The position numbers and the translations under genes were made by a program. A stretch of 64,000 nucleotides of DNA from Kiritimatiellia bacterium. Its GTDB lineage: Bacteria; Verrucomicrobiota; Kiritimatiellia; JAQICX01. The stretch is taken from assembly GCA_027858345.1 (NCBI GenBank), contig JAQICX010000242.1:2787-66786 (forward strand), written 5' to 3'. The first letter of the stretch is position 1. Each line of letters opens with the position of its first letter. The notes under the pieces are model-generated. The model made no database searches. It saw only the letters and a program-made list of their open reading frames with translations, and was not told the origin of the DNA. This document shows, piece after piece, positions 6,843 to 63,966 of the stretch.

Positions 6843-6927
6843 ATCATTCCTATATTATTGTTAAATCTCAATTATAACAACATGCAGCATTTTTTAAAAG
6901 ACAAAAAAGTTCACCTTCTTTTTTAAC

Positions 6928-7058
6928 CGTAATTTTTCGGTTGGCTACAGCTATGACAACGAGGATCCCGCTCTGCGGGATCGCTCCCAGCATGCAACCA
7001 ACCGTTGTCTTGGAAAAACGGGAGAGATCCCGCAGGGCGGGATCCCCATTGTCATAAG
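6928..7058. repeat. MITE-like element fragment with TTTTTCGGTTG terminus and gatcccgctctgcgggatc palindrome
   Basis: Left end aatttttcggttgg. Internal palindromes gatcccgctctgcgggatc and gatcccgcagggcgggatc. Same module at 31865-31895. Confidence 0.5.
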
Positions 7059-7286
7059 AAATTATTTTTTAACTTTATCACCAAAAACAGCAAAAACTCA
7101 AAGCAAAATCCCTGATTTTATTGACTAAAATCCATGCTTATATTCTCAACCAGAAAAATAGGGTTAAAAAGTTGATTTGGTTCGCACCTGACCATTAATC
7201 ATGATTCGCTTTTAAACATTTTTTCATCTTCATCGCATATGTTACATCACGATTTGCTTCCTTGTTTTGTCTTTTCCAGAAAGCTA

Positions 7287-11896: not shown

Positions 11897-14800
11897 CTAC
11901 GGCTCAAGCTCAAGCCAGACACGACCGCGGAAGAAGTTTCCCGGTGCTTCGTCTATCCGGTTGGTATAGCTGACGGATTGTCCCTCGCCCGCCATCTTGG
12001 ACAGCCCAGTCACCTTCTGCCAGACACCAGTCGTCAGATCGTCCGCCTGCTCTAGTGCATAGTACCGAAGGCCACCCAAGCCGTAGAAACCGCCGGCTGG
12101 CACAGTCGGGAAAGACACCACCGCTGTTCCGTTGCTCATGCCGATCCCGAGCCGGAACACGCTTTGCGAGTTCACTGCGTCTGTTCCCGCCACGTACTCC
12201 TGTGCATTGGGTGCTCCGTCGCCGTCCAAGTCCGCCTGTTCGTGTTCTGCAAACTGATTCGTCCAGGCTGGATTAAGCTGGTTCAGCCACGCCTCCGGTA
12301 TGCCGGAAGCCGTCAGATTGGCCAGAAAATCGGCTGACAGGGCATGTTCGTCCCACACATTCGTAAACGCGACGTTCATCAGAGGCCCTGTTGCAAGCCC
12401 ATCCAACATCACCGAGCCGACTCCATAGAACTGGTCGGGCAGAACCACGATATTGGTCGAAGCCCCCACAGGAACCAACACGTCACCTTCAGGCACAACT
12501 CGTCCATGTGAACCGGACTCAGCCGTAATCTTGCGGTACAGCATTGAGTTGTAGGTATCGACCACAATATCATCGACCTGTCCCTCACCCGAGAAGCCGA
12601 CGCTGCTCAAGTAATTGCGATTCGTATTAGCCGCCGCGTACCATACGGACGGATGCGTCACGGGAATGCGGTTGACCCAGATCCGGAACCCGAAGGCTCC
12701 GTTCAAATCGCGGGCATAGTCCGCCATCAGGGTCAGCCGGTTAAAATCGTTCGACGAGACAACTACATCCGTCAATTCGCTACACCGGTTCGTACTGCCA
12801 GCCTGGCCATGCCATACTATTAATTTCTGGTCGCTGTTAACCCAAAGGGCGATCTGCGCCTCTGGAGTAATTTCGACCGGCACCTCATCCTCACCAGGAT
12901 TGAACGCCATGAGCATATCCACACAGACATTGTCCAGCACATCTGTCTGCTCGAACTGCTGAGTAATGCCTCTGTTGAAGGACAGGCCCTGCTTATGCGA
13001 GCCTGCAATCGGACTGTCACCCGGCTCCGCAGCCGTATACCTGTTGGTTTCAACCACTGCGCACTGAGGATCATAACCCTGCCACCCCCCTATGCCGTTC
13101 AACAACGAACCGAGTTCATAATTTTCAAAGGATTCCTTGTAAGGCAAACTATTTGGTGGGTTTACATCGGTGACAGTCACGGTAACGAAACGATTCGTCA
13201 CCAACTGCCCGTAAATCATCGTCAGCATCAATTCATACGTGCCAAGGTGCGTGAAAAACGCCTCCGCATCGGCCTGCGTTGGATTCTCCAACACGACCGA
13301 AGAGTCTCCTGGAGAAGACCAGATAAAGTGGACGGAATTCGTCATCCCGCTCAAAACCTCCGCCGACGCATGCAGACCAACACGATTTGTAAACGTCAGA
13401 TTGACTGTCGAGTTCACCTGTGCCGTAAAAGCAGGGATGTTCGTGTAAACCATAATCCATACCACCGGCGATAGGGCGTCACCCTCGTCATCAATCAGTC
13501 GTGCCGAGAGTGTTCTAACACCCTCGCGTGCCTCCAATGCAATAGTCGCAGTGTACGGAGCGGATGAATCGCTGGCCACATTCGTCCCATCAATAGCAAA
13601 AACCACCTGACTTACCGTGCCAATGATAAAGGCCGGATCCACTTCCGCCGTCACCGTAATCGAAACAGGCGACAGGAATCCAGTATTAGCCAGAGGAGCT
13701 ATCACAGCAACCTTGGCCGGGCCGTATCCAGGGGTCGGATAAATTCCAGCCACCCAACTCGCCGGGTCATCCCCGCTACTCCGACCAGTAAGATGTGTCA
13801 GTGCTCGCCCCGTACCGTCCGCTTCCGCAGGCCAAGGTGCCGCATCGTAATACGTAACCTGGTCAATCACATGCCAGGAAATGTCTTCGATCGGCGCCGG
13901 CGGATCACCAAATACCGGCCGCTCCAGTCGCACGGCGTCGGTCTTGTTGTTCAGTTGCCCGCTATACGGACCCAGCATGCGAATCTGCCCGTTGGACAGC
14001 CCGTAGGCGTCCAGGAAAGCGGTTCGCTTTGCGATGTTGTTCGAGGGATCAAATGATACTACAACCAACCGCTCGCCTGCCGACAAAACCGTATTGCTGG
14101 GAAACAGATACCCGATGCCACCAGCCAGACGCCAAGCACCCCCCACGTCGTTGACGATGTTCGTCAAAGCGATTGCCTGCGCCGTCGGGTTGTACAACTC
14201 GACGAATTCGTCGTTTTCGTTGTTCTCAGGATTAGCTGTAGTCGGCTTGGGATGGTACATGATCTCGGAGATTACCACGCTGGCGGCGGTCAACCGGTTC
14301 GAGGCGCCGGGCGTCGGGACGCCATAGAACCAGGACGCCGCCCCGTCGGGATACCGGATCAGCGGCACGCCATTCTCCTCGCCCTTGATGGACACGGCGT
14401 CCACCACGCGGTCCGTCGCTCCCGTGCCCATGCCCGGCAGGTAGGACAACAGCACCTGCTCGTCCGCCTTGTTCAGGCCGAACCCGTTGGTGATCGGATT
14501 ATGAAAATCATGGATTTCGTCAAAATAACGCCACTCGTGTGCCGCGAGCGTGTTGGTCGCCGGAATCGCCCACTTGGTCAGTTCCTCCAGATCGTCGCTC
14601 AGATACCACCCGGAACCCAGCGGGATCGGAGCCGCGGTCACGTTGTATAGTTCGATACCGTCGTTGGAGTCGTAGGGCGGGCTGTCGATGTCCGTGTGTG
14701 CCAAAATCTCGTTCAGCACCAGCGATGCGGCGGGCGCAACCGGCTCGGCCTCGCCCGGCGACCCGCCAATGTAGACACTGGCCTTCCAGTTGCCGGGATA

Positions 14801-17800
14801 GTCCAGTTCGCCGTCCGCCTGCGTCACGTCTGACAGCGGTACAAGCGAATGCCCCGCGCCGTCGGCCGCCGGCAGCCACTTGTCATTGTAAGTGAACGAC
14901 ACCACGTTGCGACCGAGCGCGTCTTCGATCTCGATCTTCTCGCCGGCGTTGTCGAGACTGGTTGACGGAAAGACGAACGCGCCGGCGATCTTGCCGACAG
15001 CCACCGTCGGATACCTGTTCGTGAACGCAATGATGTTCTTGACCACCAGCACATACTCGTCGGGATTCAGGACGGTTACGGCGCTCTCCGTGAAATCGAA
15101 CGCCACGCCCTGGGTGAAATGCAGACCGGTTAGACCGATGGGCGCGGTGCCGGCGTTCTGCAACTCGATGAATTCGTCGTCGCCGTCCAGACAGCTTTCG
15201 CCGCCGACCGATACCGGCTGGCGCGGGTGAAACATCAGCTCCGTCACCCGCAGGTCCGGCTTGTCGGCCAGCGTGAACACCGCCTCGGTCAGGGCACTCC
15301 ACTCGCCACCCGCCGAGAGCGCACGGGCCTTGACGTGCACCGTGCGCGTCAACGGCACGGCCGCGGAATACAACGTCCCCGTCGCCGCTCCCGTGCCATA
15401 CTGACGCGGATCGGAGCCGTCCAGCGTGTAGTAAATCGGGTTCCCAGCGGTCACAACCAAATTAAAGCTGTTGTCGAACAGGCCACCAAATTGGCTGAAC
15501 TCTGGTGCGTCCACGGCAGGATAAAGTCCATTAGCTTTCAGCATCTGCATGAATATCGCCGGACGCAGAGGCAAGAACGTATTCAACACGTAGTTGCGCA
15601 TAACGCGCCACTGCTCGACCGTATGAGCAGCCTGACCGTCCTGGTCTCCCCAACGTGCACTCTCTGCAACAATGGCCTGCTCAACCTCTTCCGATAGTGC
15701 CTGATAACGTGCAATTGTGACCTCCGGTGTCAATTGCCCGCCATTAAAAAGATATTTATGCACACGGTCGGCGAACCGCAACTTGTATTCCGCATTCCCA
15801 ACCAACCGACCCTGAATCACGGCTACGCCATTGATATCGCCGATCTTGTCAGTATTGAGTGTGCTCCTGTCCAACCCCAATGCCATTTCGGCATCCCAGA
15901 CACCAAACTTGAATCCTGTACTCGCCGAATCGTTCCTGTCGCGGAATGCCCGCCAGTTATTCCCCGGCCAGTCATCAACCGCTAATGCATACTGCACGAT
16001 CATATAGTCAATGTAATTCCCAACATCCAGATAGATTGGATAAGCCAGATTACGCGTGCCGTCCTCATTGTTGCCCTGCACCTTCTGATATGCCGTGTTG
16101 CTACCCTGACCGTTGGCCAGCTCGTCCAGCATAACGTTCCAAGCCGTACCATTGCCGTCTTCTACTCCATCCTGACTGATCACATCCCACGTATCGTCCC
16201 GTCCGCCGCAATAAGAGGCTGCAAACTCACCAGAAATATGTTCCGTCATATTGTAGAGTCCCCAATACAAACCGTTCAAATAAAGATGGACAAAAGTGCC
16301 GTGCGGAGAAACCCCGCCCATGGTAAGATGCGTACGCCGGACGAACTCATCAACAATATACTGCGTCCTTTCATGCCCACTGCTGTTCCAACCGTCATTG
16401 GCCCCAGAACGCAATACAAGATCGTTGAAAGAGCTGACTGCGTTGCCTGAAAAAAGATTTTCCTTCAGATGACCCTCACCATAGATGCTTCTGAACTGAA
16501 ACGTGAACGACTTCTTTCTTGTGGCACCCATGTCCCTGAAATAGCCGCCCTGAACCCGCAAACCGCAATCAATCTGAAACTTGCTGGTGTTGTCAACCTT
16601 GATAAACTCAACCGAAGCCTCGCGTTCCCAATTGTCGCCAGTTCCGAAGGGATTGACGTAAATGCCGGTCGACGAGTCGAACAAGTTCGCCTGGGGCGTC
16701 ACCACAGATATGGTGGGCAGGGAAGTCAGTGCGTTTGTCAGAGCTGCACTGGAACTCGACACGATAATCTGATCCATGCCGTAGTCAGCCGCGGTGCCGT
16801 TCCAATCTGTCGGCCAACCGGACGGCGTTGCGGACTGGCTCAAAACGTCGTCCAGCACGATATAGCTATGGGTATCAATACCCGAGGGCACCCAATCACT
16901 CTTAAATGCAGCCGCACGGATGATGGCGGTGTTAACAAAATTGAACGGTGACGAATAGAGTGAACTGGTGACCGTCGGTTGCTCGGCATTGGTCGTGTAC
17001 CGGATCTGGACTTCGGACATGTCGCAACTCGCCGTCACCTCCGGCACGGCGGTGGTGTACACGCCTCGCTTCAGAGAAAACTTGACCCCGGCCACCTCGT
17101 TACTGGGACTGGAAAACGCATTACCATCCCCCGGCGTCGGCTCAGCAAAATAGCGATACTCCCCGGTGAGACCGATACCGTAGGACATATCGTCGTATTG
17201 CTGGGGGAATTCCGGCACATACTCCGAGAGCACGGTGACACCGTCCGCCTTCACCAGCGCCAGATACTCGCCGTCGCCGCTCAGTTTGAAGTTGGCGTGC
17301 AACTCGTTGTTGGTCACCGAGTACGACTTGTCGTCGGCCCAGACCAGCAGGTAGCCTTTGCCGGGAATGGTAGACGCCGAACCAGCGGGAAACTGCCACT
17401 TCGTAGGCGTAGCCACCTTGTCCGTCAAATACCAACCGGCCAACGACACGCTGGAAGAATTCGGATTGTACAATTCGACCCAATCCCCATACTTGTCCAG
17501 CGAGTTCTTGATCGTCGTGTCATTGAGTGCCATGAATTCGTTTATGACGATATTGGTCACCACATCGGGCAGCCCGGCAATCAGTTCGGGAAGAATCAGC
17601 ATGTCAGAACTTGAACCGAGATTTAACGAGTGAACTGCTAGCACATTAGTGCCGGTCGTCAACTGTGGAAGGAATGACGTAATGTCGTAATTCTGGAAAA
17701 TCATTGCCTGGCTGTCGTCGTGACTGGCCGATGCTCGCGTATCCCAACTGGCTCCAGCCGGTGCATTGACGCGTGCGACTTCAACGCCGTTCAAATAGGC

Positions 17801-18265
17801 AATAAAACCATCATCGTACTTGACTCGCAACGTCAAGGATAAGTAAGTCTTGCCTGTCGAAACTTCGAACGGGAAACGGGTGTAAATAGCAATTGTGTTG
17901 TTTAACACTGTGGTGCCAAATAGTGCTTTATAGGTCTGATTATTGTCGTACCCCAAACCGCTGTGGCCGAAGTTCCACGTTGAATCGTTGAAGGCAGGTG
18001 CAGTCCAGTTCGTGCCGTCCAAACCATTCGCCGGCACCTGATACTGGCATGCAGCACCGGATGCCACCAGGGGCTCGTCCAGCGCCAACACCGAGCCGGC
18101 AGCAAGCCCAATACCCATCGCAATAAGAAGTGTCAACAAAAGCCCCAGCCGTTTCATACACCTTTGCATCATTGCCGATAGCATCCAATAGCCCGAACAG
18201 AAACGGTCGACCGACTCGTAGTTCTGCGTGCACAGAATTCGTTCCATGTTTGTCATTTCATTCAT
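11897..18265 (-). CDS. giant secreted CotH-family (atypical protein kinase fold) protein with four lamin-tail domains and a C-terminal Ca-binding-like DLDGDG repeat
   Basis: Four LTD signatures: INEFMA...WVELYNPN...LAGWYLTD, VTELMFHP...EFIELQN, VLNEILAH...GIELYN, VISEIMYHP...EFVELYNP. CotH core: LRSGANDGWN...TQYIVDEF...HLYLNGLYWGLYN. Signal peptide MKRLGLLLTLLIAMGIGLAAGSVLA. GC content is far above the flanks. Confidence 0.65.
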   Translation of the reverse strand: MNEMTNMERILCTQNYESVDRFCSGYWMLSAMMQRCMKRLGLLLTLLIAMGIGLAAGSVLALDEPLVASGAACQYQVPANGLDGTNWTAPAFNDSTWNFGHSGLGYDNNQTYKALFGTTVLNNTIAIYTRFPFEVSTGKTYLSLTLRVKYDDGFIAYLNGVEVARVNAPAGASWDTRASASHDDSQAMIFQNYDITSFLPQLTTGTNVLAVHSLNLGSSSDMLILPELIAGLPDVVTNIVINEFMALNDTTIKNSLDKYGDWVELYNPNSSSVSLAGWYLTDKVATPTKWQFPAGSASTIPGKGYLLVWADDKSYSVTNNELHANFKLSGDGEYLALVKADGVTVLSEYVPEFPQQYDDMSYGIGLTGEYRYFAEPTPGDGNAFSSPSNEVAGVKFSLKRGVYTTAVPEVTASCDMSEVQIRYTTNAEQPTVTSSLYSSPFNFVNTAIIRAAAFKSDWVPSGIDTHSYIVLDDVLSQSATPSGWPTDWNGTAADYGMDQIIVSSSSAALTNALTSLPTISVVTPQANLFDSSTGIYVNPFGTGDNWEREASVEFIKVDNTSKFQIDCGLRVQGGYFRDMGATRKKSFTFQFRSIYGEGHLKENLFSGNAVSSFNDLVLRSGANDGWNSSGHERTQYIVDEFVRRTHLTMGGVSPHGTFVHLYLNGLYWGLYNMTEHISGEFAASYCGGRDDTWDVISQDGVEDGNGTAWNVMLDELANGQGSNTAYQKVQGNNEDGTRNLAYPIYLDVGNYIDYMIVQYALAVDDWPGNNWRAFRDRNDSASTGFKFGVWDAEMALGLDRSTLNTDKIGDINGVAVIQGRLVGNAEYKLRFADRVHKYLFNGGQLTPEVTIARYQALSEEVEQAIVAESARWGDQDGQAAHTVEQWRVMRNYVLNTFLPLRPAIFMQMLKANGLYPAVDAPEFSQFGGLFDNSFNLVVTAGNPIYYTLDGSDPRQYGTGAATGTLYSAAVPLTRTVHVKARALSAGGEWSALTEAVFTLADKPDLRVTELMFHPRQPVSVGGESCLDGDDEFIELQNAGTAPIGLTGLHFTQGVAFDFTESAVTVLNPDEYVLVVKNIIAFTNRYPTVAVGKIAGAFVFPSTSLDNAGEKIEIEDALGRNVVSFTYNDKWLPAADGAGHSLVPLSDVTQADGELDYPGNWKASVYIGGSPGEAEPVAPAASLVLNEILAHTDIDSPPYDSNDGIELYNVTAAPIPLGSGWYLSDDLEELTKWAIPATNTLAAHEWRYFDEIHDFHNPITNGFGLNKADEQVLLSYLPGMGTGATDRVVDAVSIKGEENGVPLIRYPDGAASWFYGVPTPGASNRLTAASVVISEIMYHPKPTTANPENNENDEFVELYNPTAQAIALTNIVNDVGGAWRLAGGIGYLFPSNTVLSAGERLVVVSFDPSNNIAKRTAFLDAYGLSNGQIRMLGPYSGQLNNKTDAVRLERPVFGDPPAPIEDISWHVIDQVTYYDAAPWPAEADGTGRALTHLTGRSSGDDPASWVAGIYPTPGYGPAKVAVIAPLANTGFLSPVSITVTAEVDPAFIIGTVSQVVFAIDGTNVASDSSAPYTATIALEAREGVRTLSARLIDDEGDALSPVVWIMVYTNIPAFTAQVNSTVNLTFTNRVGLHASAEVLSGMTNSVHFIWSSPGDSSVVLENPTQADAEAFFTHLGTYELMLTMIYGQLVTNRFVTVTVTDVNPPNSLPYKESFENYELGSLLNGIGGWQGYDPQCAVVETNRYTAAEPGDSPIAGSHKQGLSFNRGITQQFEQTDVLDNVCVDMLMAFNPGEDEVPVEITPEAQIALWVNSDQKLIVWHGQAGSTNRCSELTDVVVSSNDFNRLTLMADYARDLNGAFGFRIWVNRIPVTHPSVWYAAANTNRNYLSSVGFSGEGQVDDIVVDTYNSMLYRKITAESGSHGRVVPEGDVLVPVGASTNIVVLPDQFYGVGSVMLDGLATGPLMNVAFTNVWDEHALSADFLANLTASGIPEAWLNQLNPAWTNQFAEHEQADLDGDGAPNAQEYVAGTDAVNSQSVFRLGIGMSNGTAVVSFPTVPAGGFYGLGGLRYYALEQADDLTTGVWQKVTGLSKMAGEGQSVSYTNRIDEAPGNFFRGRVWLELEP

Positions 18266-18500: not shown

Positions 18501-18660
18501 CCTTAATTTTTCGGTTGAACACACTTTTTGGCGGGGTCACGGACCCCGACCCTACAGTTGCGGATGCTGCAACCAAAGCTAAATCCTTGATTTGCAAGTA
18601 TTTTGTAGGGTCGGGGTGCTTCACCCCGCCAGCCAAGGCATTCAATCTAAAAATTGAGGT
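18501..18660. repeat. BIME-type MITE: two inverted GTAG-REPs (ggcggggtcacggaccccgaccctacag / tgtagggtcggggtgcttcaccccgcc) flanked by TIR ccttaatttttcggttgaa ... tcaatctaaaaattgagg
   Basis: Read directly from the sequence. An inverted, partly degraded copy lies at 22541-22745. Confidence 0.65.
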
Positions 18661-22128: not shown

Positions 22129-22275
22129 TTTAGATAACAGATCCTATTTATGTAAAATTCTAAAAAGATGTACTAATTCTACAATATTGAAGTCAATAAT
22201 AATAAGTAATAGCTTTTAAGTATATTCTAATAGTATTAAAATGTCAAATTATAATGATATATATTCATCTTTTTT

Positions 22276-22445
22276 CTTGATTTTTCGGTTGAGTACCCCT
22301 CAGTCATGCACGCATGACAGCTCCCCTAAAAGAGGGAGCAGTTGTAAAACTTGCAATTCAAACGGTTTGCACAACAACTCACCCACTCCTCCCCTTGAAG
22401 GGGAGGTGCCGAAGGCGGAGGGGTCGTATTGGGCATAATTTATTG
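22276..22445. repeat. MITE-like GC-rich element (gtcatgcacgcatgacagctcccc...gggagcag and cctcccc-ttgaa-ggggagg modules)
   Basis: Left TIR cttgatttttcggttgag. Module homologues at 31968-32015 and 47930-47985. Confidence 0.55.
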
Positions 22446-22540
22446 AATATTAAGCTTTTACACATATTCTTCATATTTATCACCCGTTGTGTGATCCACG
22501 CCTTGCGGGACAAGATAAATCTATAAAAAATATTTAAAAG

Positions 22541-22745
22541 GCGGGGTGATCACTCTTCGCCCAGCTATTAACGATATAATAAATCTTGTTAGTAGCTGGG
22601 CTACGCCTAACACAGAGCACCTTGAAGGAAAACCCTACAAAACACCTGCGAATCAATCTTTTAGCTTTGATTTCAGCATCCGCAACTGTAGGGTCGGGGT
22701 CCGTGACCCCGCCGAAAAGGGCATTCAACCGAAAAATTGAAAGGG
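22541..22745. repeat. inverted copy of the 18501-18660 BIME-type MITE (first REP degraded)
   Basis: About 90% identical to the reverse complement of 18501-18600. Ends tcaaccgaaaaattgaaagg. Confidence 0.6.
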
Positions 22746-25331: not shown

Positions 25332-25960
25332 AGATAAAGATAAAGATTAAGGTTGAGATGCTGGCTGTTTGCCAGCGGAATTAAGGAAATCATATCTTGA
25401 CTTTCTTCGAGGTCTGCTGACCGCGGCTACAGCTGTTCTTCCGCAAATCAAGCTTATCTTTTTGCACCATTCTGTAGGGTCGGGGTCCTTGACCCCGCCA
25501 AATCGTCGGTCATCGCCCGCCGCTATCCGCCTTCGTTCCTACGGCGCGACAGGCAGGTGTTGAGCCTGAAAACCAGCCTTAGTCCGCAAAAGCTCCTCCC
25601 TCTTTTAGGGGAGGTGGCGATCCCGCTACCACTTTGCATTTTTTAAGCAAAGTGGCGGCGGGAGAGACGGAGGGGTGTTCATTCAAAATGGAAGTTGGAC
25701 GTTCTATGTTCTCAACTATAATAAATACCGCCGGCCTGTCACGCCGTAGTCCGCCAAAGCTCCTCCCCGGCTAGCTTTGCTAGTCCCGCTCTGCGGGAGG
25801 AGGTGTCCGAGGAACGAGGACGGAGGGGGTCTTCATTTAATATTGGATGTTGAACGTTATATTCTTGTCTTTTTGCATCAAACTGTAGCTGACCTCCGCA
25901 GAGGTCGGAAAGCTGGCAACGCCAGCCCTCAACCTCAACCTTAATCTTAACTTTTCTGCG
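25323..25960. repeat. composite repeat region with inverted termini (aagataaagattaaggttgagatgctggc ... gccagccctcaacctcaaccttaatctt), containing a GTAG-REP (25482-25509), the gctaccactttg...caaagtgg hairpin and three gacggaggggt modules
   Basis: Read directly from the sequence. Module homologues at 3530-3660, 26470-26590 and 33824-33871. Confidence 0.5.
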
Positions 25961-26464: not shown

Positions 26465-26660
26465 AACCAACCCAGTCCGCCAAAGCTCCTCCCCGGCTAG
26501 TTTTGCTAGTCCCGCTCTGCGGGAGGAGGTGGCTCGCGAAGCGAGACGGAGGGGTGAATTTCCTTCATCATTGGATATTGTCGTTACGCTACGCTTCACT
26601 GCTGTCGACAGGCTCCACCCCTGCCTTCGGCGGTTCGTGTTGGATATTGGATATTCACCC
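26465..26660. repeat. GC-rich repeat (ctcctccccggctag-ttttgctagtcccgctctgcgggaggag palindrome; gacggaggggtg module)
   Basis: Near-identical to 25750-25830. Shares a block with 49085-49140 and 54515-54575. Confidence 0.55.
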
Positions 26661-28602: not shown

Positions 28603-28830
28603 GCTTTCTTGATTTTTCGGTTGAGTCATTGCATGACGGCATATCCATCGGTCAACGACCGACGCTACAGGTGTTAAGTTTCGCAATCAACCGTTAAACT
28701 GCACGTTTCATACTGTAGCGGCGGTCGCTGACCGCCGAAAAATATTTTTCACTTTATCACCCACCGTGTCCTGCATAGCTTGCTGTGCCCTGCGTAGCTG
28801 CAAGCGAAGAATGGTAGAGCGATGCATGGA
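28603..28830. repeat. MITE-like element with two inverted GTAG-REP family B units (cggtcaacgaccgacgctacagg / ctgtagcggcggtcgctgaccgccg) and a gtcctgcatagc module
   Basis: Left TIR cttgatttttcggttgag. The REPs are inverted relative to each other (BIME-like). Confidence 0.6.
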
Positions 28831-28941
28831 ATGTGTTATAAAACGATACTTGTTTTGCTAATTCTATTAGCTCAAACGCATATTATCCACTCCAAACGAA
28901 AACCAAGGTCCGTTTACGACTATTATTTATCAATTGTTTCA

Positions 28942-31679: not shown

Positions 31680-31761
31680 TCCTTATTAATATATTAATTA
31701 AGGCATTATACATAACCAATAAATAAAGAGCAAGTCTCAAATGGATGATTTGCTGTCGCCT

Positions 31762-32085
31762 TAATTTTTCGGTTGAGACACTTTATGAGAACGTTTTTCA
31801 TGCCGTCACGCAGGTGACCGTTCTCGCTCCCGTTTTTCCAAGACTACGTTTGTTTGTATGCTGGGAGCGATCCCGCAGAGCGGGATCCTCGTTGTCATAT
31901 TAACTTGTTTTGTTTTCAGATATGAAAAGCCATTTGGCGGGGGCACGGTTCCTGACCCTACAGTCGCACCCCTCAGTCACGCAAGCGTGACAGCTCCCCT
32001 TAGCAAGGGGAGCAGTTCTGGTTTGCTTGACGCTTTCGCAGCTCATAACACTAAGGTGAGGAGGGCTCTTTTATAATAAATGCCT
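31762..32085. repeat. MITE-like composite element (TIR-like left end, gagaacg-loop-cgttctc hairpin, gatcccgcagagcgggatc palindrome, degenerate GTAG-REP, gtcacgcaagcgtgacagctcccc...ggggagcag module)
   Basis: Shares cactttatgagaacg with elements at 48910, 51722 and 54405. Confidence 0.55.
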
Positions 32086-45807: not shown

Positions 45808-46269
45808 CTATTTCTCCATGAAGTCAGGATCCTTCTCAAACAGTCCAACAACAAAGTTTGGAAAACCATAACTTAGCATTCTTTCCGGAAAAGTCATATG
45901 CTGTTCGCTCATTGACATAACAACAATGTCAAAATTAAGTAATTTTTTGTACAGCTCTGATATTTCAGGGTCATTCTTGTTTATTTTGATCTTTGATTTT
46001 GGTTTGTCTTTGTAATGAGTTATAATACTACTGTTGTAATAAACAAGCTGGACATCTGAAAAGACTTCAGAGTATATCGCGGCATAAGCTAGAAGGTGAC
46101 ATGCACTGTCGCCAATAAATAGTATTGATGGCTTTTTATCTCCTTTGAAATTTGCAGAGGAGTCAATAGGGTACTTAAGTTCGGGTCCCATAAAAACTTG
46201 TGGAGTCCATATGTTCATTAAATCAACCAGATCAGTATCCATGAAGTGTCTTGAGCTGACTTTTATCAA
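45808..46269 (-). CDS. hypothetical protein with GDS(L)-like motif (ILFIGDSACH), possibly truncated
   Basis: ORF only. Its N-terminus abuts the transposase remnant. Confidence 0.3.
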   Translation of the reverse strand: MIKVSSRHFMDTDLVDLMNIWTPQVFMGPELKYPIDSSANFKGDKKPSILFIGDSACHLLAYAAIYSEVFSDVQLVYYNSSIITHYKDKPKSKIKINKNDPEISELYKKLLNFDIVVMSMSEQHMTFPERMLSYGFPNFVVGLFEKDPDFMEK

Positions 46270-46440
46270 CCACTCTTGACAGAAGTTTTTGCATTGATGC
46301 AGTAAAAGAAACCTTGCAAAGATACGGCACTCCTGATATCTTTAACACTTATCAAGGATCTCAGTATACTAATGAATAATTCACAGATTTACTGAAAGAG
46401 CTCAATGTTAAGATAAGCATTGCAAGCATTTATGTTGCAA
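46263..46440 (+). mobile_element. IS3-family transposase (OrfB DDE domain) remnant with in-frame stop
   Basis: Manual + strand translation gives ...SFCIDAVKETLQRYGTPDIFNTYQGSQYTNE*FTDLLKELNVKISIAS, resembling the IS3 ...HSDQGSQYTS..F..LL...GI..S motif. Only about 60 codons remain. Confidence 0.45.
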
Positions 46441-46494
46441 AAGCTAGCGATGCTAACAGTGATAAGTAATAGGTCGGAAGTGATAAGTAAGAAA

Positions 46495-46740
46495 ATGTAA
46501 ATGGCTTGTGTTGCTCTGCATAACATGTTTTTCCTTGCCCAAGGGACGCAGCTTCCACCTTCACCGTTTCGGTCTCCGGCGCGACAAGAGGAGTGGACTT
46601 TGCAGATTAACCTTTGATTGGTGAAGGAGCCCTGCTTGTCGCGCCGGAGGAACGTAGGCGGATAGCCGAGTCGCTCCGGCTCGGAAAACAAAGACTCACG
46701 CAGTGAGTGATGTTGAAATCATGTAGGGGCGAGATGCATA
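46495..46740. repeat. GC-rich palindromic repeat (ccaccttcaccg...ggtgaaggag; ccggcgcgacaag...cttgtcgcgccgg; atagccgagtcgctccggctcgg)
   Basis: Long inverted repeats read in the sequence. The gccgagtc/ctcgg module is shared with 3470-3490 and 49270-49300. Confidence 0.5.
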
Positions 46741-46768
46741 TCGCCAGAACTAATGGAGAAAAACAAAA

Positions 46769-47815
46769 ATGGATATAGCAAATAGAAATGAAAAGAACCC
46801 GATAATTGTGCCGGCTGATGTTGTGCCCAGTGTAGAAGGTGCAGTAGTTGAATGTGTATTGAATGCCGGGGCATTTAAATTTAATGGACGTATAGGACTT
46901 CTTATGCGTGTTGCTGAACGTATGGAGCAAGTTGAGGGAGAGCTTTCAACTTTAGTTGCCGACGAGAATTCGGAATTAGGCGTAAAGGTTGTTTCATTTA
47001 AACTGGATGATCCTAAGCTTGACTATACAGATCCAAGGGTGTTCAGCTATGAAGGAGTGCCATATCTCACGACTATAAGTCATTTGCGTCTTGCCTGGAG
47101 TGATGATGGAGTCAATTTTGAGATTGAGGAACGTCCTCTTCTGACAGGTAGTGGTAAAATGGAAACCTTTGGTATTGAAGATTGCCGGGTTACACAGATT
47201 GATGACACATATTATCTTACATATAGTGCTGTTTCTGAAAATGGAGTTGGCGTGGCCCTTCAGACGACCAAGGACTGGAAAACATTTGAGAAGTATGGAT
47301 TGATTTTCCCTCCACATAACAAAGATTGCACTTTTTTTGAAGAGAAGATTAATGGCAAGTTTGTTGCACTTCACAGACCTGTAGGTGCGGATGTTGGCGG
47401 ACCATATATGTGGTGTTCAGAATCTCCAGATTTGATTCATTGGGGAAATCATGATTGTATTGCTCGAACTCGCATTAGGCAATGGGATTGTCAACGCCTT
47501 GGGGCAGGGGCTGCACCAATAAAGACAGACAAGGGTTGGTTAGAGATATATCATGGTTGCAATGATGAATCTCGATATTGCCTAGGAGCTATGCTTCTCG
47601 ATATTAATAACCCGACAAAAGTGATTGCTCGTTCCGATGAACCTATTATGGAGCCAATTGCTGAATATGAGCAAAAGGGCTTCTTTGGTAATGTTGTTTT
47701 TACCAACGGGCATATTATCGATGGTGATAAGGTAACAATTTATTATGGTGCATCAGATACAGTTATCTGTATGGCAACCATGTCAATTTCTGAAATTCTA
47801 GGCACATTAGTATAG
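46769..47815 (+). CDS. GH130-family glycoside phosphorylase/hydrolase (beta-mannoside phosphorylase-like)
   Basis: N-terminal NPIIVP..., DCRVTQIDDTYYLTYSA, and a 5-bladed propeller-like size of 348 aa. Confidence 0.55.
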   Translation: MDIANRNEKNPIIVPADVVPSVEGAVVECVLNAGAFKFNGRIGLLMRVAERMEQVEGELSTLVADENSELGVKVVSFKLDDPKLDYTDPRVFSYEGVPYLTTISHLRLAWSDDGVNFEIEERPLLTGSGKMETFGIEDCRVTQIDDTYYLTYSAVSENGVGVALQTTKDWKTFEKYGLIFPPHNKDCTFFEEKINGKFVALHRPVGADVGGPYMWCSESPDLIHWGNHDCIARTRIRQWDCQRLGAGAAPIKTDKGWLEIYHGCNDESRYCLGAMLLDINNPTKVIARSDEPIMEPIAEYEQKGFFGNVVFTNGHIIDGDKVTIYYGASDTVICMATMSISEILGTLV

Positions 47816-48840: not shown

Positions 48841-48893
48841 TAATTCATAATTGGACGTTGAAATAAACAAAAAAGTTGGATTGCACGCTTACC

Positions 48894-49265
48894 CCTTGAT
48901 TTTTCGGTTGAGTCACTTTATGAGAACGAGGACGACTGTAGGCCATTCACTACGTTCATTGCTTCACCCTATTGTTTATCTGTAATGGTTAAAGCCTCTC
49001 TCGCAGGCTCGAGTCTCGCTCCCAAACTTGCAGATTAATATTGTCTTGCAGGAATGGGAACCCACCCCTCCGTTCTCGTTCCTCGAACACCTCCTCCCGC
49101 AGAGCGGGACTAGCAAAACGCTAGCCGGGGAGGAGCTAATACGTCCTCATCGTCATAATAATTTGTTTTTCCCATTTATCACCAAAAACCGAGGAAATTT
49201 AAGATTCATTCCTTGATCTTATTGGCTCAAACGAACATTTTTATCTCCAACCGAAAAACTAAGGG
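48894..49265. mobile_element. MITE-like element (372 bp) with 16-bp TIRs ccttgatttttcggtt / aaccgaaaaactaagg
   Basis: Both termini read directly. The internal 150-bp block is about 95% identical to 54447-54590. Confidence 0.65.
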
Positions 49266-49500
49266 CTTACCGCCTGTAGCCGAGTCCCGTGGGCTCGGAG
49301 GAATTTGCAAACAACGCTGATATTGCTGCAGAACGCCTGTAGCGGCGGGCGTTGACCGCCTGTAGTAGACCTCCACAGAGGTCTGGAAAATTGCAACCCA
49401 AAGAAAGCCCCAGAGGGCGACATCTTAGTAGCCTCAGGTTTTAACCTGAGGAAAGATAAACAAATGAACAAAGAGTCCCATAGGAACGGCACCTCCTAGA
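49266..49500. repeat. cluster of GTAG-REP units (cctgtagccgagtcccgtgggctcgg; cgcctgtagcggcgggcgttgaccgcctgtagtagacctccacagaggtct)
   Basis: Three consecutive GTAG-plus-palindrome units read in the sequence. Confidence 0.55.
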
Positions 49501-50152: not shown

Positions 50153-50413
50153 CTATTCCCAGTACTTCGGACGACCATAGAAGTCGTATAAGCGTACATC
50201 ATACTCACGGTTCACCAGATCAGAAGGGTCATATTCAGGACTGTCCTTGATCTTCTCTCTAGGTAGATCAACTTTCACCTTCTTTTCCGCCCAGTCTATC
50301 GAATCTATCCAAGTTGGTGATATCAGCACCTTCTTACCTGACAACCAATTGTGGGTATTAACTACTATTTTATAACAAACTTGAAGAATCTTTTCAATCT
50401 TTTTCTTAAACAT
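50153..50413 (-). CDS. possible small protein (about 87 aa, start MFKKKIEK)
   Basis: AT-rich distal part of the 345-aa ORF, downstream of the MITE. Could be an independent small gene or non-coding. Confidence 0.25.
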   Translation of the reverse strand: MFKKKIEKILQVCYKIVVNTHNWLSGKKVLISPTWIDSIDWAEKKVKVDLPREKIKDSPEYDPSDLVNREYDVRLYDFYGRPKYWE

Positions 50414-50424
50414 TCTTCGTTTAC

Positions 50425-50640
50425 CTTGATTTTTCGGTTGTAGATTTTTCCCCGTTAAGTTTAGAAAACATAGGCCTCTCTCCCGCCTTGCGGGATTCTT
50501 GCTCCTTTCTATTTTTCTTATTAGAGAAAGAAGCGTTAGACAGTGTCTACGGCTCGGCAAGATGCGGACAGGCGCACGAAAAAAGAAAAAAATTAGCAGC
50601 ACAAAGACACGAAAACCCAAAGCATGGAGTTTTTGAACCT
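50425..50640. mobile_element. MITE-like element (left TIR ccttgatttttcggttg) lying inside the read-through ORF
   Basis: The TIR motif and ctctcccgccttgcgggat palindrome. The right end is less clear. Confidence 0.45.
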
Positions 50641-50699
50641 TGGTCCGAGGCAACCGGCGAAGTCGGGTAGCCTCAAACCGCTGGTTAAGGTGTAAGGTT

Positions 50700-51472
50700 T
50701 CTAGTTTTTCACTGTCCTCCCGGAAAGGCCATGGGTAAACAGTGGCTGTCTTCAAGTAGATTGAATTGACGCCACCGTAGTGGATGCCCACAACAAAGGC
50801 GTGCGACATATCAGTAGGGACCGTCGTGCTTGTCCAGTAGTCATAATCTTGTACGCCGGTGAAAGGATGCCCCGTCGGTAAGGAGGGGAAGCTGTTCTGG
50901 AAATCCAACAGCCTGAAAAGCTCTCTCACTGTGGGCAGTCGCCAATCGGAGTAGTCTCCATAGGTCAAGTTCTTGCACATGGCAATGGCGTTGTTCCGGT
51001 TCTGCTTGCCAAAGAGATTTGCATTTCTTGTCCACATCAGGCCAGTCAGATTGTCCAGTACCACGTTGGTGTTGGATTGAACGGAGAACCGAGGAACTGG
51101 CGATGAAACGCCCGTCTTCAGATCCCCATCATCACTTGATGCGTACGAAGTCGTCTGTCCGGTCTTGGCTGGAGGTGACGGATACACCAACCGATTGCTG
51201 CTGCCTCAAACCCGGTAGAACATGGGCACGGATGAAGTGACGATGGAATCCGACGAACGAATGTCCGTCAGAGCGAAGTAGTTGGACTGCCAAGCATCCG
51301 GGACGGTCAACGATGATGCCCATTCAACTCGGTAGTACAGATTCGTATCGCTGTTTATCCATGTCAGTATCCCGTTTACACTAAACGACGTAATATCCGG
51401 CGACTGCGCCAAAGCCGTTCCTGCGATTACCAACCACGCAGCACAAGCACTTCTCAACCAGTTGCTTATCAT
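50700..51472 (-). pseudogene. secreted DUF1566 (Lcl C-terminal domain) protein interrupted by an in-frame TGA at 51206-51208
   Basis: Signal peptide ORF (51206-51472) and DUF1566 ORF (DWRLPTVRELFRLL) are in the same frame, separated only by TGA: ...MFYRV*GSSNRLVYPSPP. Confidence 0.5.
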
Positions 51473-51705
51473 AAGTTCCGATTCCTTTCTTATTCGTGCC
51501 CGAACAATTATTATACGAAGGCTCGTAAATAATTTCAGTATTTAAATAATATCAAAGGCAAAAATTGTCTTTGAGTGGTTGGCTTGTTGTTAAACCCAGC
51601 ATAAAAAGAGCTGTTTATAACAATTATTCTTCTAAAGTTAGCAGTGTTATATGGTTTTCTAAGAAAAATGCAACTTTTATTTTGGTCGTCATAAATAAAA
51701 AGCGT

Positions 51706-51965
51706 CAATTTTTCGGTTGAGACACTTTATGAGAACGAAAATCCCGCCCTGCGGGACTACCAAACTTGCAAATTAATATTGTCTTGTAGGAATTGGATCA
51801 TCCTTTGCTCTTCCCGCTTCGTTCTGCGAACTACGCAGGACACGGTCGAGTCTACGGCGGACAAGCCGACGATGGTCACCTGCGTGACGGAATAAAAAGA
51901 AAATTCACTCCCTTATTTTGTTGACTCAAATGCACGAATTTACCTCTAACCGAAAAACTAAGGAC
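51706..51965. mobile_element. MITE-like element (260 bp) with TIRs caatttttcggttga / aaccgaaaaactaagg
   Basis: Termini read directly. Internal blocks shared with 48894-49265 and 54389-54730. Confidence 0.65.
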
Positions 51966-53742: not shown

Positions 53743-54388
53743 TTAATTTCTCTTTCATGTTGTCGAATTTTAACACCTCTGACTGTGTGAAATGGCAACC
53801 AGCCGGTGCATGCTGGTTGCTACCATCGTCGGCATATATCGCATGCTGCGATACTGCGCCAGCGTCGGTGTCAACGCCTTTGATTTTCCAGACTATAGAG
53901 GCATGGTACTCCAAGGAGTATTCAACATGTCCAGGCCGAGAGATCGGCTTGCAATTTACACTGTCCATTCTTAATGCTCTACTCATACACCATCACCTAT
54001 TCATTTTTTCATTTTCTTCCTAACAACTAACTGACCCTTGTCAACTAATAGTTAATAACAGTTTTATTTCCTTTTATCACTGCTGGCAAAGTCAGCTAGG
54101 ACACTCTGTGGGCAGGTTGGCGAGATATTATTTGTTAATATACTAGGATTGCACTGCGTTCACTCTAGGCTTCTCATGAAATATGCCGTTGGCACATTTT
54201 TACAATGATTTTTTTAAGCCCACCGTCGTACTCGAATAAAATCTTTACAGCCTTTCATTTTGTCAATGCTCTAAAAACTAATACTTTACCAGATTAAAAC
54301 AAAGTTTTAAATTTTTTTTTCACCCTTTTTTTGCTTTTTCATAAATTATCCTTAATTTTCATCTTTTTTCATAGAATTCTTGACAGAA

Positions 54389-54730
54389 CCTTTTCGGTTA
54401 TTTCACTTTATGAGAACGTTTTTCATGCCGTCACGCAGGTGACCGTTCTCGCTCCCAAACTTGCACATCATATTGTCTTGCAGGAATGGGAGCCCCACCC
54501 CTCCGTTCTCGTTCCTCGAACACCTCCTCCCGCAGAGCGGGACTAGCAAAACGCTAGCCGGGGAGGAGCTAATACGTCCTCATCGTCATTAAAAATTATT
54601 TTTCATTTTGTCACCCAATTGTGTCGTGCGAAGCTTGCAAAGCAAAGAATGAAATGGGCAAAAACAAGCTGTCAATCACTAGTTTTGTTGGTCGAAATGC
54701 ATGTTTTTTATCCTAGCCGAAAAATTAAGG
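54389..54730. mobile_element. MITE-like element (342 bp) with TIRs ccttttcggtta... / agccgaaaaattaagg
   Basis: Shares the gagaacg-hairpin, the 150-bp block with 49001-49160, and gtgtcgtgcgaagcttgcaa with 58755-58780. Confidence 0.6.
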
Positions 54731-58486: not shown

Positions 58487-58870
58487 GATACCTTGATTTT
58501 TCGGTTGAATTATTTTTTTGTTGAAATTTTGGAAAGCCATTCTTTCAAATAGTTTATAGTTGATAGTAAATAGTAAATAGTTCTCTACGAGGTTAGGAAG
58601 TCGCTTTGCTATGCAGGACACAGTAGCGGGTTAGAAAGAGCACTGCCGTGGGCAGGAGGATTCTACTTTGCAGAAAACTTCAAAAGAAAATGTGACGCAG
58701 GACTCATGACGCACGACGCATGGTTTCATAAAAAAACTTATAGTCACATAAGTACTGTGTCGTGCGAAGCTTGCAAGAAGGATGAACAAACAATATGGAA
58801 TATTGTTCGCTGTCTCTTCATCTCAACATGAGCGGAAGCGGATTCCAACATTTACCATTTACCGTTTACT
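58487..58870. repeat. MITE-like composite repeat (left TIR ccttgatttttcggttgaa; aaatagtaaatag direct repeats; gtcctgcatagc-type and gtgtcgtgcgaagcttgcaag modules)
   Basis: Read directly from the sequence. Modules shared with 100-200 and 54625-54650. Confidence 0.5.
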
Positions 58871-63331: not shown

Positions 63332-63966
63332 TATGTTTCCAATAAAATAATGTTTCCACGTTTGATGACATATATCTTGTCATCTTTAATTAATTCAAGT
63401 TTTTCCTTATCAAAAGAATTTACTTTGTATGTCTCGATTGTTTCATCCTTAGTGATATAATGAATTTTTTTGTTTTCGAGAACTTCAATTAAGATTAGTT
63501 CCTGTCCATTTACAAGAGTGTGTCCAATATATCTAAATTGTTTATTCTGTTTGGGTTTAGGGTTGGTTTTTGGCTGTTCTGCAACATTATTATTTGGTTG
63601 GTTCTGGGCTTGCAGTTTCTTTTCTTCTTCAGCTTTGAGTCTTGCAGCCTCTTTTTCTTGAGCAAGACGTTCTTCCTTAGCTTTTCGTTTCCGTTCTTCT
63701 TCCAGTCTTTTTGCATCTGCAATTTTTTTTGCTTCAGCTTCCGCTTCCAAGCGTTTTTTTTCTTCGATTGCTTTTTCTCTTAGCCATGATGATAGAAATG
63801 GATTTGGAATGTTACTATCGATTTCAACAGGAGTTAGGTTGAATAAAGGTTCATGAATGTTTTCAGTTTTGTTTGAAGGGACGACTTGTATTATGCTGAC
63901 ACTTATATTGTTTTTTTGTTCTTCTACAGATTCAAAGGTTGTATATGTAAAATATAGGCATAGCAC
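63331..63966 (-). CDS. hypothetical Lys/Glu-rich coiled-coil protein, probably 5'-truncated at the window edge
   Basis: The frame remains open upstream of the annotated Met to the window end. Shares a start/stop overlap with the ATPase gene. Confidence 0.35.
   Translation of the reverse strand: MLCLYFTYTTFESVEEQKNNISVSIIQVVPSNKTENIHEPLFNLTPVEIDSNIPNPFLSSWLREKAIEEKKRLEAEAEAKKIADAKRLEEERKRKAKEERLAQEKEAARLKAEEEKKLQAQNQPNNNVAEQPKTNPKPKQNKQFRYIGHTLVNGQELILIEVLENKKIHYITKDETIETYKVNSFDKEKLELIKDDKIYVIKRGNIILLET

Follow-up and report, generated by a model that had tools for sequence, protein, structure and literature searches.

A probable family of promoter-proximal MITEs with unlike ends in uncultured PVC-group bacteria

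Correia repeat-enclosed elements, the MITEs of Neisseria, are abundant in intergenic DNA, lie mostly just upstream of genes and presumably affect promoter activity (PMC10969869). The BOX, RUP and SPRITE repeats of pneumococci form clusters in which one repeat family is nested in another (PMC10969869). The repeats that we describe here, from a 64-kb stretch of bacterial chromosome (the window) and from related loci (numbered L031 to L216), have features of both. Like Correia elements, they are short, non-coding, bounded by terminal inverted repeats, intergenic and situated upstream of genes. Like the BIMEs of E. coli and the pneumococcal clusters, they are intergenic mosaics of mutually inserted repeat families, with REP-like GTAG-headed hairpins and a fixed orientation to genes.

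The differences from each of these systems are also clear. Correia elements duplicate TA at the target, whereas the duplications here are 8 bp long and varied; the Correia sequence, with its termini of about 26 bp, is unrelated to that of the present family, and the host belongs to a different phylum. Neither the TA duplication nor the ~26-bp termini that define a Correia element were found in our repeats. Moreover, Correia elements carry their own outward promoters, whereas the promoters associated with this family lie outside it, some 25 nt past the terminus in host DNA that is non-homologous. Unlike BIMEs and BOX clusters, the family is bounded by true terminal inverted repeats, is flanked by 8-bp duplications and is cleanly present or absent at orthologous sites.

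We conclude, with a probability of about 85%, that these repeats are a MITE family: they are short and dispersed, lack a transposase ORF, have inverted termini and 8-bp duplications, and are polymorphic for presence and absence. An earlier note on the window had proposed this reading, and paired termini elsewhere, 8-bp duplications and orthologous empty sites now bear it out. The family is new and previously undescribed, its kind is well known and its lineage has been little studied; in that sense it is ordinary biology. The asymmetry of its ends, its fixed orientation to genes and its phasing to promoters are additions to the earlier note.

Termini, copies and mosaic interiors

The 16-mer CCTTRRTTTTTCGGTT matches the 64-kb window 13 times with at most two mismatches, against 0.29 matches expected, and none of 100 shuffled windows attains 13 matches; the repetition of the motif claimed earlier is therefore real. 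The match at 63675, which has two mismatches and lies in coding DNA, is probably due to chance. Altogether the window contains 12 termini with at most two mismatches and about seven degenerate ones. The 16-mer bounds non-coding segments of 160–470 bp. The 17 bounded units, of which 16 are single copies and one is a composite, measure 159–471 bp, and their longest internal ATG-initiated ORF encodes 8–47 aa in the single copies and 70 aa in the composite. Pairs of inverted termini are mostly close together (206–476 bp). The terminal inverted repeats are imperfect and 16–19 bp long, 5'-CCTTRRTTTTTCGGTTGA ... TCAACCGAAAAAYYAAGG-3', with the reverse complement at the opposite end.

The two ends of the element are unlike. 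The B end consists of the terminus and an AT-rich module, about 100 nt long, that is conserved across loci and genomes and contains an ATCACCC...GGGTGAT palindrome. Its consensus reads ...ATCACCCAA..GGTGAT...CCCTnATTTTATTGATyTAAATGCATGTTTTTCCTCTC, abutting the terminus AACCGAAAAAYTAAGG. By contrast, the A end consists of the terminus followed by variable GC-rich hairpins of at least four unrelated types, several of which have the GTAG/CTAC head typical of REP sequences; in the L178 copy they form an inverted doublet (CGGCGGTCACCGCC...CTACAG / CTGTAGCGACGGGCGTTGACCGTCG). When the B ends are read inward, 16 of 21 show a Shine-Dalgarno-like sequence of the GAGAGG type, with an ATG or GTG some 28 nt in from the terminus. 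In the majority of them a mini-ORF of 3–7 codons runs to a conserved stop, often as M-x-F/L-N/D-Q-stop; examples are at 49220-49264 and 54690-54730 of the window, L132 930-975 and L080 2592-2640. This mini-ORF might represent a leader peptide or what is left of the start of a transposase gene.

The copy at 48894..49264 (371 bp, + strand) is non-coding (longest ATG-ORF 21 aa) and has two perfect termini: the A-end repeat CCTTGATTTTTCGGTTGAG on the left (48894..48912, + strand) and the B-end repeat on the right (49249..49264, - strand; AACCGAAAAACTAAGG on the + strand). The 7-bp sequence GCTTACC, read directly on both sides (48887..48893 and 49265..49271), is a putative target-site duplication. 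The 261-bp copy at 51703..51963 (+ strand) likewise has its A end left and its B end right, with two mismatches in the left terminus, and lies between the 3' end of a GH36 gene and the promoter region of an Lcl_C gene. In the 342-bp copy at 54389..54730 (+ strand), the B end falls 30 nt past the stop codon of a ThiI-like gene and the A terminus is truncated or split: the left terminus is shortened to CCTTTTCGGTT, and a fragment, CCTTAATTTT, lies 29 nt farther out, near 54350. The order at 54350-54399—CCTTAATTTT, 29 unrelated nucleotides, CCTTTTCGGTT—looks like that of a terminus interrupted by a small insertion or a partial duplication.

Two copies that the earlier note took for left ends only, at 6928 and 28603, turn out to be complete; their right termini, at 7163 and 28908, are degenerate. 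The one at 6927..7163 (237 bp, + strand) has the degenerate B terminus AACCAGAAAAATAGGG. The other, at 28607..28908 (302 bp, + strand), lies between the stop codon of a recQ-like gene and the dctQ promoter, with 24 nt from the A terminus to the -35 hexamer TTGCGG. The 159-bp copy at 18501..18659 (+ strand) has two ends of the A type, the right one degenerate, and a GGGGTC...GACCCC hairpin after each terminus extends its inverted repeats to about 55 nt. The divergent intergenic region between the HK and EamA genes holds a composite with two outward-facing A termini (22275..22744, no strand assigned). The inverted copy previously placed at 22541-22745 is more likely to be the right half of this composite.

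Several copies have one recognizable terminus and no recognizable partner. Single A termini, all on the + strand, lie at 31759..31774, upstream of a GDSL-lipase gene and with a -35 hexamer beginning 25 nt outside; at 50424..50439; and at 58491..58506, upstream of an nfnA-like gene. They correspond to the partial copies noted near 31766, 50425 and 58487. The copy positions of the earlier note thus stand as sites and needed small corrections to their coordinates.

The terminus at 50424..50439 lies within a long ORF on the - strand (50153-51190), and its AAGG stands 10 nt upstream of an ATG, at 50413, that is in frame. This ORF is uninterrupted, and JGI contigs also call a single 344-aa gene there. 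It comprises an Lcl_C domain, then repeat DNA with the MITE terminus, then an 86-aa segment with its own ATG (50413), and is either a fusion made by the repeat or two genes that are in frame by chance. We rejected a PRC-barrel assignment of the 86-aa ORF (50153-50413), which has no Pfam support.

The interiors are mosaics of REP-like hairpins, as was recognized earlier, and the copies are 67–94% alike internally. The interior of 48894-49264 has modules in common with 54447-54618 (92%), 51757-51797, 25758-25828 and 26484-26563, and its right-hand 120 nt are 68–74% like the right ends at 7043-7163 and 51887-51963. Folded as single-stranded DNA, this copy pairs its termini (-51 kcal/mol, z = -3.7); the termini pair in a second single-strand fold also (z = -10.8). 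The 16-mer is an island of conservation, with 90% pairwise identity against 34–36% on each side, and because related loci were fetched by an exact 18-mer this is partly a selection effect.

A search of Rfam at gathering and E-value thresholds found two tRNAs in the window and nothing at 48.4-55 kb. Intrinsic terminators were predicted at 10 sites between 48.4 and 55 kb, with 7.7 expected, which gives no support for an element-borne terminator in the window. By eye, the B-module palindrome with its T-rich tail is terminator-like in some copies at related loci only.

GC-rich palindromes with GTAG/CTAC heads (for example CTGTAGCGGCGGGCGTTGACCGCC and GGGTCGGGGTCCGTGACCCCGCC) occur singly or as inverted doublets within MITEs, at 49265-49400, 25400-25500 and 28640-28740 of the window and at L078 8700-9116; upstream of thyA in L078 they form a long tandem array. 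They look like classical REP/REPIN sequences, and this likeness implies a RAYT gene elsewhere in these genomes.

Distribution, target duplications and empty sites

We scanned one genome per species for an exact 18-mer of the terminus and repeated the scan on metagenome contigs. Among the genomes there are isolated matches in many phyla, at the level of chance. The Victivallales MAG CAYTUX01, however, stands above this chance level, with at least nine termini on at least eight contigs, and its repeats are 85–93% identical to modules of the window. Three metagenome sample groups (Ga0307987, Ga0209414 and JGI1221J) have multi-contig clusters comprising at least the matches listed, and window modules are present in them too. 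Short inverted pairs number at least 15 across the window, CAYTUX01 and these three groups, so that paired inverted termini, on whose recurrence elsewhere the MITE reading had been made to depend, occur at many loci and in other genomes. Viral contigs yielded three isolated matches. A blastn search of 72,556 plasmids with the B-end consensus gave no match covering the terminus, and a short nhmmer model of the terminus recovered almost no additional ends.

The hosts are uncultured PVC-group bacteria: two proteins encoded in the window have identical counterparts in the source MAG, which is classed under Kiritimatiellae at NCBI, and CAYTUX01, a species-representative MAG with the same repeats, is labelled 'uncultured Victivallales'. 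The family marks this bacterial clade. It also breaks metagenome assemblies; contigs from JGI samples 3300051638-40 are near-identical to the window, and their ends tend to fall within the repeats.

Evidence of mobility comes from the flanks of the copies. At zero offset, the 8-bp flanks are identical in at least seven of eight positions in 4 of 15 complete copies, compared with 2 of 210 mismatched flank pairs (p ~1e-5). Two of the four match fully (TCATTCAT at L080 and TTAAAAAA at L178) and two match in seven positions (ACCTATAA / ATCTATAA at L078 and TAACTTTT / TAACTTTC at L210). Target-site duplications, suggested earlier as a check, are thus present and 8 bp long in these four copies, with the 7-bp GCTTACC at the 48894 copy. 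A recognizable duplication is kept in only about one third of complete copies, and the other flanks are decayed or unclear.

Empty sites were sought at syntenic loci in related species, reached through homologues of two window proteins. L210 has a 293-bp copy, in the order B..A, upstream of dctQ. When this copy and one duplication are removed, its flanks are collinear with L207 and L208, both of which are without the element. The window copy at 28607-28908 is a different, independent one, at the same orthologous dctQ promoter and in the same orientation as the L210 copy. The divergent HK/EamA region is 711 nt long in the window, composite included, and 160–190 nt long in L215 and L216, which have no element there. 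Upstream of nfnA, the window is homologous to an orthologous locus of 93% identity (L200) through the promoter and spacer, and this homology stops within 3 nt of the terminus at 58491. Clean empty sites were not found for 58491 or for 54389-54730, where relatives have other sequence or other repeats.

No autonomous partner came to light in the DNA searched. Pfam finds no transposase domain in the window ORFs scanned, in agreement with the earlier statement that the window holds no cognate transposase, and the ORFs at 46232-46930, where an IS3 remnant had been proposed (46263-46440), are all short and without a Pfam match. Neither in the window nor in about 400 kb of related loci does an inverted pair enclose a transposase. 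When all fetched loci were scanned for inverted pairs 600–4000 bp apart, the only low-mismatch pairs were those at L031 and L047, which fall within a chemoreceptor gene and the operon of an ATP synthase and are chance occurrences. An inverted pair at L057 982..4945 (3.96 kb), at first sight a candidate autonomous element, encloses pnp and a membrane protein; we therefore take it for two separate copies. We also discarded a pair at L119 107..1583, which spans fusA and whose second match is coding DNA.

Orientation and spacing relative to promoters

The A end faces the 5' end of a gene in all 16 complete copies examined, after three doubtful ORF calls had been corrected by the promoter and start codon in the flanks. 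Tandem genes flank 14 of these copies, every one of which is arranged B then A along transcription (two-sided p ~1e-4), so that B points toward the 3' end of the upstream gene and A toward the downstream promoter. The other two are in divergent regions, and none is in a convergent region. B termini often fall 3–76 nt past a stop codon.

The distance from the A end to the promoter is also constrained. We scored the best match to TTGACA-N16-18-TATAAT within 80 nt of each A-end flank. In 16 of 26 flanks the -35 hexamer of this match begins 24–28 nt out from the terminus (binomial p ~1e-13 under a uniform null), whereas 5 of 166 chance occurrences of the 18-mer in unrelated genomes have it in that interval. 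Among 25 non-redundant flanks, 14 have a TTG starting at positions 26–28, where the background is about one per position, and a G peak at position 48 coincides with the expected place of the 'TG' of an extended -10. B ends directed toward 3' ends show no peak of spacing; in L055, where the B end faces a promoter, TTGACT is found at 26. Of five ends that played no part in discovering the pattern, two clearly follow it (27 and 24) and two depart from it (40 and 10), the fifth being ambiguous. Neither so strict an orientation nor a spacing phase-locked to promoters is what random transposition predicts, and both are statistically solid.

The promoters belong to the host. Those of nfnA, dctQ, EamA and thyA have orthologues in relatives without an element at that spot, and the spacers, which are AT-rich, are non-homologous (0.337 mean pairwise identity; 0.329 after shuffling); we therefore assign the promoter to host DNA outside the element. 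The thyA promoter is about 90% conserved between two species (L057 4945-5054 and L078 8620-8720), and immediately upstream of it stands a MITE A terminus in L057 and a REP array with an ATCACC box at its end in L078. The site just upstream of promoters seems to draw repeats from different families.

If the -35 hexamer is placed at about -36, the terminus falls near -62, which for sigma-70 promoters is the upstream edge of the UP-element/RNA-polymerase footprint. We suggest, tentatively, that the element is placed relative to sigma-70 promoters, either by oriented targeting at about -62 or as a promoter or insulator module that the host has adopted and that works in a phase-dependent way. The sharp peak and the two independent insertions in the same orientation at the dctQ promoter favour targeting. 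Later selection or remodelling is favoured by the scattered distances in copies with intact duplications, where the -35 hexamer lies at 14 nt (L080), 27 nt (L178) and 40 nt (L210); L078 has no clear promoter and the 48894 copy a weak one only. It is favoured too by the HK/EamA region, where the spacers are 26–27 nt on each side while the -35 hexamers of both relatives are 14 nt apart, an arrangement that a simple insertion duplicating 8 bp cannot produce. So few copies do not discriminate between targeting and later selection.

Fixed orientation and a spacing of about 25 nt thus raise the question of whether a bacterial DDE transposon can read promoters as landmarks for integration or whether transposon ends become upstream promoter elements. 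If the host had adopted the ends, only copies in phase would persist; targeting would make the family a bacterial counterpart of the Ty3 type. Ty3, TRE5-A and Tf1 integrate at a narrow, fixed distance from a landmark of transcription initiation and in a preferred orientation, and they are retrotransposons tethered by known transcription factors. The analogy with them is functional only; what our repeats display is the end state. A 2024 review of prokaryotic MITEs describes intergenic, gene-proximal locations and no fixed distance to promoters (PMC10969869). If the placement proposed here is true, this would, going by that review, be the first bacterial MITE phased to promoters at the nucleotide level. 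Targeting and recruitment alike would bear on how mobile DNA shapes regulation in compact genomes, and the family would be usable as promoter annotation in organisms that lack transcriptomic data.

Alternative readings, a putative transposase and the host setting

Could the 16-mer be a host cis-regulatory or protein-binding site—an operator, a UP-like A-tract, a roadblock or insulator—that is selected upstream of promoters, with the repeats around it incidental? The -35 spacing of 24–28 nt (16 of 26 A-end flanks; 5 of 166 controls), the TTG at positions 26–28 in 14 of 25 flanks, the direction of the A end toward gene 5' ends in essentially all complete copies and the 90% identity island amid 34–36% are all as such a site would have them. 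Yet the same 16-mer also occurs inverted beside gene 3' ends, where it bounds the homologous ~100-nt module; 8-bp duplications adjoin it; the whole bounded segment, and not the motif only, is missing at orthologous empty sites; the motif is non-palindromic; and the conservation island owes something to the way loci were selected. We consider this explanation improbable, although the host may make use of the terminus after insertion.

It is still less probable that the repeats are of the REP/REPIN type, moved by a RAYT (a Y1 tyrosine transposase) and not by a DDE enzyme. The interior modules do fit that description, with GC-rich GTAG/CTAC-headed palindromes and, as in L178, inverted doublets in some copies, but the bounded unit does not: it ends in AT-rich inverted termini of 16–19 bp and not in hairpins, it has 8-bp flanking duplications, its hairpin families vary among copies with identical termini, and no Y1 transposase domain was detected in the scanned window ORFs. 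To our knowledge, Y1 transposition (IS200/IS605, RAYT) makes no 8-bp duplications. The least probable account is that the copies arose in place by decay of full-length insertion sequences, as solo ends and internally deleted relics, without transposition of a short unit. Many single termini, mosaic interiors and the Shine-Dalgarno-like sequence with an ATG about 28 nt into the B end, placed like the start of a transposase gene, agree with decay; however, copies of 206–339 bp have intact 8-bp duplications at both ends and hence were inserted as short units, the B module is common to different loci and genomes, and no copy holds a remnant of a transposase-like ORF.

The preferred reading, a MITE family, would have a transposase encoded elsewhere bind both termini and cut the target with an 8-bp stagger, leaving the 8-bp duplication. 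We infer from that duplication, by known transposition chemistry, that the enzyme would be of the DDE type. On this reading the family has spread across the intergenic regions of this uncultured PVC clade, and GC-rich REP-like hairpins appear to have colonised the interior of the element. In the ISfinder family table, the IS1595 subgroup of the IS1595 family has 8-bp repeats and ends that read CcTGATT. We take these ends to be close to the CCTTGATT of our family, from which they differ by one base. The 8-bp target duplication is thus a common feature, whereas no IS1595-type transposase was found linked to the repeats and the termini differ by that one base.

The window itself is an ordinary piece of bacterial chromosome of about 39% GC. 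Its 32.4-45.5 kb interval carries tRNA-Thr, tuf, tRNA-Trp, (rpmG), secE, nusG, rplKAJL and rpoBC, and the gene content on both sides of this block is usual for a free-living anaerobe. A 2122-aa ORF on the - strand (11897-18265), with LTD, CotH, CHB_HEX_C and Big_7 domains, has 52–59% GC, which, against about 39% for the genome, suggests recent foreign origin or strong compositional constraint. The region of the GH36 gene at 52-54 kb is likewise GC-rich (0.53). Intergenic regions of the clade are partly filled by another kind of repeat, short tandem oligonucleotides (ATAGTAAATAGT, TCCGTCCATTCCGTCCATCC and CTTAGAACTTAGACCATAGAAC), which we observed at 58540-58590 of the window, at L201 2340-2380 and 6580-6620 and at L204 6540-6680.
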